Source of the DNA: a virus
Lineage: Duplodnaviria; Caudoviricetes
Virus record (IMG/VR): IMGVR_UViG_3300012953_000213
Span: 1-24,680 of that record
Length of the DNA: 24,680 bases
Reading direction: 5' to 3' (one strand)
The stretch's first letter is position 1. Every line of letters starts with the position of its first letter. A program made the position numbers and the translations under genes. The notes beneath the pieces were generated by a model. The model did no database searches and had not been told where the DNA came from. It worked only from the letters and a program-made list of their open reading frames with translations. Of the stretch, positions 2,434 through 10,940 are shown piece after piece.

Positions 2434-3021
2434 ATGCAATCTTTATTTAATTATATTATATCTACTAAAAGTCGTTACAATAATAAAGTTAATATTGGTA
2501 ATAAAGAATTAATAATTAATACTGAAGTTACCGAAAGAGATTATATTTTTGTTAATAGAATAGGCACTGTAGTTAATACACCAGCCTCTCTTGATACTAT
2601 AATAAAAAAAAATGATGAAGTAATTGTACATCATAATGTTTTTAGAAGATGGATTGATCAACAAGGAATTGAAAAAAATTCTAGTAGTTTTATAGAAGAA
2701 AATAAATATTTTGTAAATGAAGATCAAATTTTTGCATATAAAAGAAATAATAATTGGGAATGTTTACCTAATTTTTGTTTTGTAAAACCTTTACATGATA
2801 ATAACCAATGGAGCCTTCATTCTGACGAAAATTTAAAAGGAATACTTACGTATAGCAATAATAAGTTAAGTGAGTTAGGGGCATCCATAGGCGATATAGT
2901 GGGCTTTACACCTGATTCTGAGTATGAATTTAATATTGATGGCCAAAAACTTTATAGAATTTTATCAAATCATATAACAATTAATTATGGATCGAAGAAA
3001 AAAAATTATAGCCGCTGCTGA
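2434..3021 (+). CDS. GroES/Cpn10-like co-chaperonin, apparently two tandem domains
   Basis: 195 aa with two GroES-like halves: 'IGTVVNTP..IKKNDEVIV..YFVNEDQIFA' and 'FCFVKP..KGILTYS..IGDIVGF..EFNIDGQKLYRILSNHI'. Confidence 0.6.
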   Translation: MQSLFNYIISTKSRYNNKVNIGNKELIINTEVTERDYIFVNRIGTVVNTPASLDTIIKKNDEVIVHHNVFRRWIDQQGIEKNSSSFIEENKYFVNEDQIFAYKRNNNWECLPNFCFVKPLHDNNQWSLHSDENLKGILTYSNNKLSELGASIGDIVGFTPDSEYEFNIDGQKLYRILSNHITINYGSKKKNYSRC

Positions 3022-5465: not shown

Positions 5466-7910
5466 ATGGCAAAAGTAGAAGCTCAAAATTACACGTTTCC
5501 TAACCAAGCAGTATCAGATGCTGTTAAAATAACCAAAGAATATGGTTTATCTGTTGGTAGAGCTATTGAACAAGAATGGTTTAATAAAGACAACAACGGG
5601 GTTGGTAAATTTTTTAACTCTAGGGAAGAGTGTCACAGATTAAGATTATACGCAAGAGGAGAACAATCAATTCGAAAGTATAAAGATGAATTTGCAATTA
5701 ATGGTGATTTATCATATTTAAATTTAGATTGGAAACCTGTGCCAATTATTCCTAAGTTTATAGATATAGTTGTAAACGGTATGCAAGACAGAACCTTTAC
5801 AATAAAAGCTATAGGACAAGATCAGTTGTCAACAGGAAAACGTACAAAATTTGTAAATGATGTACAGCAAGATTTAAATACAGCTCAGTTATTATTAAAT
5901 ATTGAAAAAGAACTGCAAGTATCTGCTAGGAATTTTGCTGTTAATGAATTGCCGGCTAATACAGAAGAGTTAGAACTGTATATGCAATTAAATTATAAGC
6001 AAGGCATAGAATTAGCTGAAGAACAAGCAATTGAAAACATATTTAAAATCAATGATTACGAAGCTACTAAAAGGAGAATTGATTATGATATAGCAACCAT
6101 AGGTATAGGATGTGCTAAACATAGTTTTAATAATACTGATGGGGTAGTTGTTGAATATGTAGATCCTGCTAATTTAGTATGGTCTTATACTGAAGATCCT
6201 AATTTTTCTGATTGCTATTATTTTGGAGAAGTTAAAAACATAAATGTTAATGAGCTTAAAAAAAGATTTCCTAATTTAAGTAATGAAACAATTGAAAAGC
6301 TCACTAAAAAGGGCTCTAATTGGAATATATATAATACATATAATCCACAAAATTATTATGGAAATGATTCCTTGATGCAGAACAATACAGTTACCGTATT
6401 AAATTTTAACTGGAAAACTTGGGAACATGACGTATATAAGATAAAAGAAGTTCCCTCTGGTGGTAAAAAAGCTATTGAAAAAGATGATAGCTTTAATCCT
6501 CCTGAAGAGCAATCAATGCGTTTTGAAAAAGTAAAGCAAACCAGAGAAGTTGTTTATGAGGGAGTATTAATTTTAGGTACTTCAGAATTACTTAAATGGG
6601 AAAAAGCATCTAATATGGTAAGGCCCCATGCTAATATTAATAAAGTAATGATGAATTACATTGCTTCAGCGCCTAGGATGTATAAAGGCAATATTAATTC
6701 ATTGGTGGCTAAAATGACACCTTATGCGGATTTAATTCAATTAACACATTTAAAATTACAACAAGCTATTCAAAGAATGACACCTTCCGGTGTGTATTTA
6801 GATGCTGATGGTTTAGCGGAAATTGATTTAGGAAATGGCAATAATTATAATCCGCAAGAAGCCCTAAATATGTATTTTCAAACGGGTTCTGTTATTGGAA
6901 GATCTTTAACTGTTGAAGGGGATCAAAATTTAGGTAAAGTACCTATTACAGAATTACCAGGCAGCGGTGGCCAACAAATACAAGTTTTAGTAGGTGCATA
7001 TAATCAATACTTACAAATGCTTAGAGATGTAACAGGATTAAATGAAGCTAGAGATGGTTCAGACCCTGATCCTAATGCTTTAGTAGGTGTACAAAAATTA
7101 GCAGCCGCTAATAGTAATGTGGCAACTAGACATATACTTTATAGTAGTTTATTTATTACTACACATTTAGCCGAAGCAATATCTTTAAGGTTTAAAGATG
7201 TTTTAGAATTTCATCCGACTAAACAATCTTTTATTGATTCATTAGGTCAATTTTCTGTAGGTTCTTTAGAAGAAATTAAAAATCTTAATTTACATGATTT
7301 TGGTATTTTTTTAGAACTTGAACCTGATGCAGATGAAAAAGCTATTTTAGAAAGTAATATACAAATGGCATTATCTAATGGTAATATATTTTTAGAAGAT
7401 GCAATTGATGTAAGAGAAGTAAAAAATATAAAATTAGCTAATCAACTATTAAAATTTAGAAGAATAGCTAAGCAACAAGCTGATCAAGCTCAAGCCCAAG
7501 CTGCAAGTGCGGCTCAAGCTAAAGCACAAGGCGAAGCACAAATAGCTATGGAAGCAGCAAAAGCTGATGCAGAACAAATAAAAACAACTTCAAAAATACA
7601 ATTATCCACAGCAGAAAATGAAATGGATATTAAAAAAATGGAGTTAGAAACTAGAGCTAAAAAAGAACTTATGCAATATGAGTTTAATTTAAATGTTCAG
7701 TTAAAAGAATTAGAATTAAAATCTAGAATGGAACTCGCACAAACAAATAATTCTTCCATGTTACAACGGGAAGAAATTAGAGAAGCTGTAAAAGTACCAT
7801 CAGGAAAAATATCAGGCGCACCAAATACAGATGTTCCTGTAAAAGATTTTGAATCTAAAGGTAATGATACTTTAGGTGGCTTTGATATGGGCCGATTTGA
7901 AGCATCATAA
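5466..7910 (+). CDS. Portal protein
   Basis: 814 aa directly after terL. 'LDWKPVPIIPKFIDIVVNG' and 'LRDVTGLNEARDGS' resemble podoviral/crAss-like portals. Long C-terminal coiled-coil (barrel). Confidence 0.85.
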   Translation: MAKVEAQNYTFPNQAVSDAVKITKEYGLSVGRAIEQEWFNKDNNGVGKFFNSREECHRLRLYARGEQSIRKYKDEFAINGDLSYLNLDWKPVPIIPKFIDIVVNGMQDRTFTIKAIGQDQLSTGKRTKFVNDVQQDLNTAQLLLNIEKELQVSARNFAVNELPANTEELELYMQLNYKQGIELAEEQAIENIFKINDYEATKRRIDYDIATIGIGCAKHSFNNTDGVVVEYVDPANLVWSYTEDPNFSDCYYFGEVKNINVNELKKRFPNLSNETIEKLTKKGSNWNIYNTYNPQNYYGNDSLMQNNTVTVLNFNWKTWEHDVYKIKEVPSGGKKAIEKDDSFNPPEEQSMRFEKVKQTREVVYEGVLILGTSELLKWEKASNMVRPHANINKVMMNYIASAPRMYKGNINSLVAKMTPYADLIQLTHLKLQQAIQRMTPSGVYLDADGLAEIDLGNGNNYNPQEALNMYFQTGSVIGRSLTVEGDQNLGKVPITELPGSGGQQIQVLVGAYNQYLQMLRDVTGLNEARDGSDPDPNALVGVQKLAAANSNVATRHILYSSLFITTHLAEAISLRFKDVLEFHPTKQSFIDSLGQFSVGSLEEIKNLNLHDFGIFLELEPDADEKAILESNIQMALSNGNIFLEDAIDVREVKNIKLANQLLKFRRIAKQQADQAQAQAASAAQAKAQGEAQIAMEAAKADAEQIKTTSKIQLSTAENEMDIKKMELETRAKKELMQYEFNLNVQLKELELKSRMELAQTNNSSMLQREEIREAVKVPSGKISGAPNTDVPVKDFESKGNDTLGGFDMGRFEAS

Positions 7911-7940
7911 TGTTAATTAATTATTATATTTTATATTATT

Positions 7941-9251
7941 ATGGAAAACGAAGTACAAGAAAATGTAGAAGTTAAAGCAGTTGAAGAAACACCTTCTGAT
8001 GCTTTACCTCAAAATAAAGAAGCTGCTGTGCTTGAAAAAGCTGTAGAAGCAGGCGATGTAAAGCCAGAATATGGTTTACAAGATGATGGAGTCTATAAAA
8101 TAAATGTAGATAACCCACCACCGCCTAAAAAAGAAATTAAAGAAGAACCCAAAAAAGAAAAAGAAAATGCCGTTCAAAAATCAGAGCCAAAGGAAAGCGT
8201 GTTACGCGATGAACGACCCGAAGTGGGATTGCAAGAAGTGGGATCAGAAGTACGGGACGAATCCAACAAAGAAAATCTTACAGAGGAAAAACAAGCCCCT
8301 ATAGAGAAGGAAAAAACAGATTCACCATTAGAATTAATTATTGAAGAAGATAATAAAGCTGATGTCCCTAAAGAAATTAAAGAAGCACCTGCTGATTTAA
8401 AACCTAAGAAAGAATTACAGGAAGAAAAAATACCAGAACTTCCTGAAGGGGTAAATAAACTTATGAAATTTATAGAAGAAACAGGTGGAACTGTTGAAGA
8501 CTATGCTAAGTTAAATAAAGATTATTCTAAAATGGATAATTTAGTTTTACTTCGTGAATATTATGAGTTTACCAAACCTCATTTAGACAAAGAAGACATT
8601 AATTTTTTAATGGATAAAAACTTTGCCTATGATAAAGAATTAGACGATCCGTCTGATATAAAAGCTAAGCAATTAGCTTTTAAAGAAGAGTTATATAATG
8701 CTCAAAATGCATTAAATGGTGCTAAAGAAAAATATTATACTGATCTTAAGTTAAGAAAAAAGAATGATATTCCTAAAGAGTACCAAGAAGCATTAGTGTA
8801 TTATAATAAAACTCAGCAATTACTCAAAGAAGAAGCTCAAGTAGCGGATAATTTTTTAGAACAAACGAAAAATGTTTTTAACAATGATTTCAAAGGTTTT
8901 GATTTTAAGGTTGGAGAAAGCAAATATCGTGTTAAAATAGATAACACTAAAAAAATCCAAGAGTTTCAATCAGATATTAATAATTTCTTAAATCAATTTG
9001 TAGACGATAAAGGAGTTACTGATGCTAGAAAATACCATAAAGCTTTATACACCGCGCAAAATGCGGATAAAATAGCAAATCATTTTTACGAGCAAGGCCG
9101 TGCCGACGCTATAAAAGAATCTGCTAAAAAAGCTAAAAATATAAATATGGATCCAAGATCAGATGCCTCTTCTGTTGTTACAAAATCTGGTGATACGATA
9201 AGAGTTATATCTGGAGATTCTTCTGATAAATTGCGAATTAAATGGAAATAA
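7941..9251 (+). CDS. Putative capsid scaffolding protein
   Basis: Acidic, Glu/Lys/Pro-rich disordered N-half and helical C-half, located between portal and major capsid. Confidence 0.65.
   Translation: MENEVQENVEVKAVEETPSDALPQNKEAAVLEKAVEAGDVKPEYGLQDDGVYKINVDNPPPPKKEIKEEPKKEKENAVQKSEPKESVLRDERPEVGLQEVGSEVRDESNKENLTEEKQAPIEKEKTDSPLELIIEEDNKADVPKEIKEAPADLKPKKELQEEKIPELPEGVNKLMKFIEETGGTVEDYAKLNKDYSKMDNLVLLREYYEFTKPHLDKEDINFLMDKNFAYDKELDDPSDIKAKQLAFKEELYNAQNALNGAKEKYYTDLKLRKKNDIPKEYQEALVYYNKTQQLLKEEAQVADNFLEQTKNVFNNDFKGFDFKVGESKYRVKIDNTKKIQEFQSDINNFLNQFVDDKGVTDARKYHKALYTAQNADKIANHFYEQGRADAIKESAKKAKNINMDPRSDASSVVTKSGDTIRVISGDSSDKLRIKWK
8167..8304 (+). CDS. Overprinted (+1 frame) 45-aa basic protein nested in the scaffold gene; not in ORF track
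   Basis: MPFKNQSQRKACYAMNDPKWDCKKWDQKYGTNPTKKILQRKNKPL-TAG, with an A-rich leader. Coincides with rare codons in the scaffold frame. Resembles small phage proteins beginning MPFKS..Q. Confidence 0.7.
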   Translation: MPFKNQSQRKACYAMNDPKWDCKKWDQKYGTNPTKKILQRKNKPL

Positions 9252-9277: not shown

Positions 9278-10876
9278 ATGGCTTTTACTGGTGGCGTACC
9301 CGCCGCTTTACAACCGACCCAGACTAAAACACTTTATGCTGGGAACTATATTGACTTTACAGCCACAGGCTTTAGTCAATGGACACAACAATTTTTACCC
9401 GACGTATACGAAAAAGAAGTTGAAAGATATGGAAACAGATCAATCGGTTCTTTTCTTCGTATGGTATCTGCGGAGATGCCTTCTACATCAGATCAAATAA
9501 TTTGGACTGAGCAAGGAAGGTTACATACTAGATATGCAAACTGTTTACCTCAAGGAAATGCTGGTGCTATGCCTGCTGCAGGAGCTCAAGCTGCAATTGC
9601 TGCTGCTGGTGCTGCTGGTGGAGTACTTAACTTTAACGTACCTGCTGCAACACAACCTGCAAGCTTAGGTGTAAGTCCTACTACTCAAACATCACAAGTT
9701 AACTTCAGAGTTGGCCAAACTATTATGGTCCAAATTCAAACTAGTGCTACTTCAGCGGTTGGTGATCCAACTAAAGCTGTTATAAAAGGAGTTTGTACTG
9801 CTGTTGGAGTTGGTGGAGGTGCTACTGGTGGTGGACAACAATTTCAAATGCAAGCATATGCTGCTCATGGAGGAGTATTAGCTGCTGAAAGAGTTACTGC
9901 TATTGCATACGGTTCTGAATTTGCTAAAGGTACTGGAAACTTTACTGAAAGCTTAGATCCAGGATATGCTACTTTTACAACTTCTCCTTTAATTTTAAAA
10001 GAAAACTATCAAATCAATGGTTCTGACACTGCTCAGATTGGTTGGATTGAAGTTACTTCTGAAAATGGAGCTGGTGGTTATTTATGGTACATTAAATCAG
10101 AGCATGAAAATAGACTTCGATGGGAAGACTACATGGAAATGGCTATGATTGAAGGTGTTAAAAAAGTAGCCGGTGGTGCTGCTATTCCTCTTGGAACTTA
10201 TGGAGGAAGTTTAGCTGCTCAAAATGCTAGAGGTACTGAAGGTTTCTTTGAAGCTTTAGAATCTCGTGGAAATGTTTATTCAGGATTTGGTGGACAAGCT
10301 GCTGCTCAAGCTGGTGGTGGTGCGTTAACTGATTTTGATAACGTTCTTAAACAATTAGACAAGCAAGGATCAATTGAAGAAAATATGCTATTTTTAAATA
10401 GAGAACTTTCTTTAGAAATTGATGACATACTTGCAATGCAAAATGGTAATTATGCTGGTGCAGCTGGATATGCTCACGGTACATCTTATGGTGTATTCAA
10501 TAACAGCTCTGATATGGCTCTTAATTTAGGATTTACTGGTTACAGAAGAGGTTCTTATGACTTCTACAAAACTGACTGGAAATACTTAAATGATTGGTCA
10601 ACAAGAGGTGGTTTTGGAGGTGTCGAAGGTGTATTAGTACCTGCTGGAACTTCTACTGTTTATGACCAACAATTAGGTCAAAACATTAAAAGACCATTTT
10701 TACATATTCGCTATAGAGCTTCAGAAACAGAGAACAGAAAAAACAAATCTTGGATTACAGGATCTGTTGGAACTGGTGCTCCTACTTCTGATATTGATGA
10801 AATGAAAATCAATTACTTAAGTGAAAGATGTCTTGTTACACAAGCTGCTAATAATTTTGTATTATTTAAAGCTTAA
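9278..10876 (+). CDS. Major capsid protein
   Basis: 532 aa after the scaffold, with high-expression codon bias and followed by a strong terminator. Segments 'QQFLPDVYEKEVERYGNR', 'WTEQGRLH' and 'YLSERCL' fit crAss-like/flavobacterial podophage capsid proteins. Confidence 0.85.
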   Translation: MAFTGGVPAALQPTQTKTLYAGNYIDFTATGFSQWTQQFLPDVYEKEVERYGNRSIGSFLRMVSAEMPSTSDQIIWTEQGRLHTRYANCLPQGNAGAMPAAGAQAAIAAAGAAGGVLNFNVPAATQPASLGVSPTTQTSQVNFRVGQTIMVQIQTSATSAVGDPTKAVIKGVCTAVGVGGGATGGGQQFQMQAYAAHGGVLAAERVTAIAYGSEFAKGTGNFTESLDPGYATFTTSPLILKENYQINGSDTAQIGWIEVTSENGAGGYLWYIKSEHENRLRWEDYMEMAMIEGVKKVAGGAAIPLGTYGGSLAAQNARGTEGFFEALESRGNVYSGFGGQAAAQAGGGALTDFDNVLKQLDKQGSIEENMLFLNRELSLEIDDILAMQNGNYAGAAGYAHGTSYGVFNNSSDMALNLGFTGYRRGSYDFYKTDWKYLNDWSTRGGFGGVEGVLVPAGTSTVYDQQLGQNIKRPFLHIRYRASETENRKNKSWITGSVGTGAPTSDIDEMKINYLSERCLVTQAANNFVLFKA

Positions 10877-10890
10877 TTTTTTTTAACTAT

Positions 10891-10935
10891 AGAATGCGGG
10901 CTCTTCGGGGCCCGTTATTCTTATTTTATATTATT
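10891..10935 (+). terminator. Intrinsic terminator after the capsid gene
   Basis: Stem GCGGGCTC/GGGCCCGT with a C(UUCG)G tetraloop (10896-10915), extended by AGAAT/ATTCT and followed by a T-rich tract. Confidence 0.8.
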
Positions 10936-10940
10936 TTATT

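Follow-up and report, generated by a model that had tools for sequence, protein, structure and literature searches.

The nested gene and its host gene

The window, by which we mean the whole stretch of DNA analysed, is a 24,680-base linear record of a marine phage that CheckV estimates to be 38% complete. A PHROG family scan identified genes for a holin, an endolysin, a GroES-like co-chaperonin (2434-3021, phrog_13932, upstream of the terminase genes), terminase, portal and virion proteins, and their order is that of Elemovirus. The features of the locus discussed here are:

5466-7910, + strand, portal protein gene, upstream neighbour (phrog_6547, E 5e-139; PF16510)
7941-9251, + strand, host gene, 436 aa, with an acidic, variable N-terminal region (residues 1-165) and a conserved helical C-terminal domain
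8147-8166, + strand, leader of the nested gene, A-rich and nearly unstructured, with A at -3, -6, -12 and -13
8167-8304, + strand, nested gene, 45 aa, ATG start, in the +1 frame of host ORF 7941-9251
8305-8454, + strand, rest of the linker, site of a second nested +1 gene in relatives
9278-10876, + strand, likely major capsid protein gene, downstream neighbour (phrog_13704 'virion structural protein', E 1e-86)

The host protein is acidic and helical, and its gene lies between the portal and capsid genes. We call it scaffold-like by this gene position, just as the likely major capsid protein is labelled from position and size. PHROG, Pfam and further sequence searches found no homology to known scaffolds, the Atlas leads to known scaffolds reached only 0.79-0.80, and fold searches with the C-terminal domain were uninformative (best E 1.1, best Z 4.9). 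Its Elemovirus homolog carries the annotation 'structural protein'. An AT-rich TAT-repeat motif is found directly 5' of the scaffold-like gene (7923-7940) and of ORF 10941 (10918-10940), and relatives have similar sequences ahead of their scaffold-like gene. It is possibly a late promoter or a translation signal; since the pattern was derived from the same two sites, its chance estimate is biased.

The whole nested ORF is enclosed by the host ORF in a different frame. An earlier note on this DNA had proposed a hidden gene here behind an A-rich leader, and the leader, coordinates, ATG, length and translation were all confirmed. Its GC counts (28/60 at 8161-8220 and 15/60 at 8521-8580) were reproduced exactly, and the codons it described as rare elsewhere in the host frame do occur in the overlap: CGC, CGG and TCC once each there and never in the rest of the gene, CGA, CCC and AGC once in either part, and GTG three times against two. 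Host-frame GC3 is 0.35 within the overlap and 0.16 elsewhere in the host gene. The peptide is small and strongly basic, with a computed mass of 5.5 kDa, net charge of +9 and pI of 10.0 (12 Lys/Arg to 3 Asp/Glu). It has predicted helices at residues 6-14 and 22-29, cysteines at positions 12 and 22, and a basic tail; a hydrophobic segment was not seen, and no predicted tryptic fragment is longer than 9 residues.

The length of the ORF is weak evidence for a gene, because, when the host protein was recoded at random with synonymous codons 2000 times, 41% of the versions had an ATG-started +1 ORF of at least 45 codons somewhere. Such an ORF appears at the exact nested site in 1.4% of the recodings, and the +1 stop density of the surrounding N-terminal regions (0.086 per codon) gives a chance of about 2% for 44 open codons. 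As the ORF by itself says so little, the case for a gene is carried by conservation and selection.

Conservation, selection and probable initiation in the +1 frame

For this analysis, loci were chosen by the host protein and not by the peptide, taking the best 80 of 87. In 71 of them, including two near copies of the window (L001, L004), the same place is occupied by a full +1 ORF of 34-61 aa with a Met-Pro-Phe/Tyr start; one further locus is cut, starting inside the ORF at a contig end, and eight, all 46-49% identical in the C-terminal domain, lack a profile match to the peptide. Distinct sequences among the full loci number 61 for the host protein and 40 for the peptide. All 71 keep the ATG and the Pro codon that follows, and no homolog in the 80 loci lacks the ATG or is interrupted by a stop. 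The two features on whose presence in relatives the earlier note had staked its proposal, the +1 ATG and the open frame, are kept in 71 of the 79 relatives whose N-terminal region is covered. The nested peptide is dispensable at the scaffold-like site, as eight relatives and the Elemovirus scaffold-like gene have no copy.

In the core of the overlap, pN/pS was 0.35 in the +1 frame versus 0.84 in the host frame for the window's subtype (9 distinct sequences) and 0.31 versus 0.94 for a second subtype (22 sequences), with 14 sequences of other subtypes left out. Elsewhere, host-frame pN/pS was 0.33-0.43 upstream and in the C-terminal domain and 0.67-0.82 in the downstream linker. Host third-position differences amounted to 0.14-0.15 inside the overlap versus 0.32-0.43 outside, which is the suppressed synonymous variation that the earlier note had suggested looking for. 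Because all-pairs values are not independent, we added 17 disjoint same-type pairs, hand-chosen with the guidance of a tree. Their core contained 53 changes silent only in the +1 frame and 31 silent only in the host frame, compared to 169 and 587 in their C-terminal domains (Fisher p 8e-14). Copies of the peptide gene in giant virion genes, described below, gave 0.23 in the +1 frame versus 1.09 in the host frame (4 sequences). These comparisons indicate purifying selection on the +1 frame and relaxed selection on the host frame.

The ease with which long +1 ORFs arise in the recodings would suit a reading without any gene, in which a host-frame motif is conserved and Glu/Lys codon use happens to leave a +1 ORF open. 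Yet the host frame has a pN/pS near 1 where the +1 frame is near 0.3, and among 49 distinct non-nested copies of the peptide gene the host-equivalent frame has stops in 46 and is open over 30 codons in only three. This reading appears largely refuted by these comparisons and is scarcely plausible. Conservation of the +1 frame, selection on it and the standalone homologs described below all support the earlier note's proposal of a real peptide gene, and we predict with near certainty that the nested ORF is one.

A study of Flavobacterium initiation (PMC6847099) reports that starts there use no Shine-Dalgarno sequence and that weak structure and A at -3, -6, -12 and -13 promote them. The leader 8147-8166 is likely an initiation region of this Bacteroidota type. 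Across 31 nested leaders, A is present at the four positions in 87-97%, versus 26-53% in 676 other +1 ATG leaders, and the mean folding energies are -0.9 and -4.3 kcal/mol, respectively. On a matrix trained on true gene starts, nested leaders score -5.6 on average versus +8.0 for those starts. The A-rich leaders, like the Lys-rich tails, come partly for free, because host Glu/Lys codons supply them. Two seawater metatranscriptome runs yielded RNA contigs that span 8028-8295 and 8181-8382, each with 2 differences; since such contigs are blind to strand and frame and may stem from DNA carry-over, we did not count them as evidence.

Alternatively, the +1 frame could be reached by a programmed frameshift, producing a fusion of the acidic N-terminus with the basic peptide. 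The stretch 5' of the ATG is A-rich and rich in runs, and the +1 frame is open for at least 4 codons upstream in 44 of 45 sequences, as such a fusion would need. Against this, all 71 full copies keep the ATG and the following Pro codon, an upstream +1 stop lies no more than 4 codons away in 13 of the 45 sequences (in one, a single codon away), and the standalone copies start at the same Met. We consider a frameshift fusion unlikely, with only a slim chance of being correct, and translation of the nested peptide from its own start codon, as predicted from the leaders and the conserved ATG, very probable.

A family of standalone, fused and nested members

A search with the single peptide returned 2 homologs; a profile built from 35 peptides matched 1,114 clusters and, in a further search, 2,403 representatives of a large unnamed viral family. 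The motif that the earlier note ascribed to standalone small phage proteins belongs to a real family. Of the aligned nested peptides, 11 of 35 match phrog_1375 (function unknown; best E 9e-5), while the window peptide has no PHROG match at E up to 0.1. Two further candidates were rejected: PF22458 scored 15 bits against a cut-off of 27 for the window peptide, and DUF3008 (PF11450), an Atlas lead at 0.85 with the family on 15% of members, was matched by none of the 35 members at E 0.1.

Standalone copies, the second thing on which the earlier note had made its proposal depend, are present in all five phage records opened (023Pt_psg01, C75C1, FlowerPower, S-CBS2, P-RSP2), each with stops in the would-be host frame and with the same Met start as the nested copies. 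They are unannotated in three of these records, as is the Elemovirus copy described below; annotation overlooks this family even where it stands alone. The hosts of the phages that carry it include Flavobacterium, cyanobacteria and Streptomyces. In three of the five annotated phages the standalone copy lies among head genes, and in 9 of 12 standalone loci scanned it precedes GroES and an unknown gene, precedes the portal gene or follows a head-assembly gene, although six of these nine share one gene order and may represent one lineage. As for other placements, FlowerPower gp48 adjoins a holin gene, one copy follows an exonuclease gene and two more sit beside unlabelled genes.

Two pattern scans of IMG/VR, one for the subtype with the cysteine pair and one for the second subtype, provided 120 listed loci each. 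Among the matches listed, at least 111 of the Cys subtype are nested in the +1 frame, at least 7 head longer ORFs and at least 2 are free; the 111 nested ones lie in the scaffold-like gene (91), in ORFs of at least 900 codons (11) or in unassigned ORFs (9). For the second subtype, at least 76 of the matches listed are nested in +1, one doubtfully in +2, 28 are free and 15 head longer ORFs. For these narrow patterns we estimate about 610 and 1,500 stretches in IMG/VR, respectively, and the copies sampled were mostly nested. Among 185,579 prokaryote genomes there were 26 pattern matches (9 nested, 15 free, of which a few very short ones are probably chance, and 2 fused), every one of them in an uncultured or metagenome-assembled genome record; we read them as viral contigs or prophages.

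The fused members carry the family motif at their N-terminus. Among the matches listed, it starts at residue 1 in 42 of 43 representatives of at least 110 aa, and it heads a longer ORF in at least 22 of the 240 pattern matches listed, some beside terminase or virion-protein genes. The long proteins that it caps are otherwise unrelated (P0123, P0129, P0134, P0156 and others; L211, L248, L264), often continue with a short Gly-Gly-Arg-Ile-type motif and mostly belong to no Pfam or PHROG family. Only two of 57 long carriers scanned match Pfam, both DUF6321, and none belongs to a virion-cargo family; in a Pfam scan of long carriers and their neighbours, 3 of 61 proteins match, none informatively. 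Several motif-headed ORFs (L093, L106, L109, L139, L151, L286) lie on contigs of 100-380 kb, and one such long-contig ORF is directly 3' of the gene for the terminase large subunit. One database protein, P0005, starts as the nested peptide and continues as scaffold-like sequence; its gene was probably called across a frameshift in the assembly.

In relatives, another +1 gene, about 40 aa long, is also nested in the linker; this second one matches DUF7230/phrog_6310 weakly (DUF7230 is matched by 5 of 9 members, best E 1e-4). It occurs in four of the eight loci without the first peptide and in some with it (L003:3398-3517, L033, L034-L036, L043-L045, L067, L069, L070, L076; L329-L448), and looks degenerate in L002. 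At least 118 of 120 matches listed for its pattern are nested, 116 of them in the scaffold-like gene and 26 alongside the first family. The window has no second nested gene: its linker 8305-8454 contains several +1 stops and no profile match. Loci L079 and L080 have a different 40-aa Lys-rich +1 ORF in the host N-terminal region, matched by neither profile, which may be a by-product of codon use.

Nested genes are usually viewed as fixed pairs born by overprinting. A de novo overprint should have no homologs outside the overlap, but this family has standalone and fused members in unrelated phages. The earlier note's term 'overprinted', if taken to mean de novo origin, is therefore probably wrong, and the gene is probably an older one embedded as a cassette open in both frames. 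The standalone copies in phages with unrelated hosts suggest that a pre-existing gene may have been embedded, on one or a few occasions. The coding arrangement suits such a cassette, as Glu codons read as Lys one base on, giving an acidic linker in the host frame and a basic peptide in +1.

The cassette also appears to have moved. In 6 of 12 giant-gene copies the DNA is 90-92% identical to a scaffold-hosted copy, against 35-55% similarity over the 60 bases upstream; two of the six seem to come from a single virus, and the double constraint could raise DNA identity. Loci L005 and L029 share 96% identity in the upstream part and the C-terminal domain but 66% in the core, where their peptide types differ. 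In a C-domain tree of 56 rows, three peptide types each need at least 3-4 changes forced by well-supported branches. The simplest reading of these type changes would be cassette recombination between relatives. An independent and widespread family seems to have been embedded, exchanged and relocated with both frames open, in abundant aquatic phages. More generally, it is possible, though we hold this as a conjecture with odds somewhat against it, that acidic disordered linkers of virion genes in aquatic Bacteroidota phages act as landing pads for mobile, doubly open micro-gene cassettes, with at least two peptide families swapped as alleles and hopping between scaffold-like and giant virion genes, and that the family's N-terminal motif is a general DNA-anchoring or packaging module across many unrelated viruses.

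Function and comparison with known systems

The model of the peptide, of modest quality (pLDDT 70, pTM 0.38), shows two short helices and a loose basic tail. Fold searches with it gave no PDB match, a best viral match at E 3.4 and a best Z of 2.1 in the wide search, and the peptide profile matched solved structures at E 2.1 at best. Net charge ranges from +8 to +21 in all nested peptides. The two cysteines behave as a pair: 18 of 39 distinct host-picked peptides have both, 21 have neither and none has one, and among 479 peptides from all sources the only one scored as single shows a second Cys in a variant context, although both counts are inflated by pattern-selected and related sequences. 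This suggests that Cys12 and Cys22 form a disulfide or share a core contact.

From these observations we would propose the following account. On the late message of the head genes, ribosomes probably use the ATG of a conserved small gene that is read in the +1 frame of one of them; they would start at the A-rich leader and need no Shine-Dalgarno sequence. The gene would be older than its site, an in-frame DNA cassette that the host frame reads as a tolerated acidic linker, and recombination would swap cassettes among relatives as well as between the scaffold-like and the giant virion genes. In the window's subtype, Cys12 and Cys22 may staple the two helices. The target would be nucleic acid, the basic two-helix peptide likely binding DNA inside or at the assembling head. 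A family whose hosts span Flavobacterium, cyanobacteria and Streptomyces favours such a universal target. However, alleles that turn over are seen more often in host-conflict genes than in peptides that neutralise DNA, and some standalone copies, such as that of FlowerPower, lie outside head modules. A DNA-binding role in filling the head or within the virion is hence our tentative best guess, somewhat short of an even chance, and the account as a whole falls just short of one.

The turnover of types could instead reflect a peptide that acts late on the host cell, for instance on ribosomes, the nucleoid or a defence system, the head operon serving only for strong late expression. Types differ between host genes with 91-96% identical flanks and 61-66% identical cores, the repeated tree changes of three types fit this, one standalone copy sits beside a holin gene, and the second nested peptide matches DUF7230, its tail presumably resembling the ribosome-rescue factor ArfA. 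Yet the phages that carry the family infect very different hosts, virion modules hold most of the copies that could be placed, the motif caps long proteins next to virion genes, and invariably paired cysteines would better fit an oxidising, extracellular stage. We regard such a host-directed role as rather unlikely. The fused members point to another alternative, in which the N-terminal motif of 30 residues serves as a tag for packaging: by binding a viral protein (capsid interior, portal or scaffold) it would carry cargo into the head, and the small forms would be the minimal version of that cargo. Its position at residue 1 of nearly all long representatives and the proximity of some to terminase or virion-protein genes agree with this; a common protein partner is hard to square with unrelated phage lineages, and the long carriers scanned include no virion-cargo family. 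We consider this doubtful but, like the host-directed role, a live alternative, and retain DNA binding in the head as the preferred reading.

Searches of the main text of openly accessible papers found no description of the nested gene. The papers listed with the peptide's MPFKS start were unrelated, the one on a phage having only an unrelated C-terminal match. No Elemovirus proteomics was found, and the main text of PMC7077304 does not mention these phages. The locus has the testable features of an out-of-frame nested gene and not that of a de novo overprint, and it joins an unnamed family via its relatives. The phrog_1375 proteins, FlowerPower gp48 from a Streptomyces phage and URG13095.1 of 023Pt_psg01, records reached by tblastn, have the N-terminal motif and basic tail in common with it; they are encoded by standalone genes, and the window's Cys-pair subtype itself is without a profile match.

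Among the closest known systems is Elemovirus, of which 68 records match the peptide family; our details are from one, that of Flavobacterium phage elemoF (NC_055853). It has the same head gene order, and the C-terminal domain of its host-gene homolog is 37% identical. The same peptide subtype (53% identity) is present, unannotated and also in a +1 frame. It differs in lying inside a 3,694-aa giant structural gene (at L081:3501), the scaffold-like gene being without a copy. The giant gene has a further basic +1 ORF of 40 aa at L081:2487, which may be another nested gene. The cultured pair of Elemovirus and Flavobacterium sp. BAL314 carries the gene, which opens the function of this large unnamed family to direct experiment.

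Small basic peptides of phage heads are well known: phiX174 J is a DNA-binding capsid peptide, and T4 internal proteins carry an N-terminal capsid-targeting sequence. Our peptide resembles them in being small, strongly basic and encoded among head genes, and its N-terminal motif also caps longer proteins; the comparison concerns only how they may work, since there is no match in sequence or fold. In arrangement, it resembles phiX174 E, a membrane lysis protein nested in D, the external scaffold, and lambda Rz1, a lipoprotein nested in the gene of its partner Rz. All are whole small +1 genes with their own start, and in E/D the host is also a scaffolding gene. Unlike E and Rz1, the window peptide has no hydrophobic segment, and its family is also found standalone, in two unrelated host genes and as exchangeable types.
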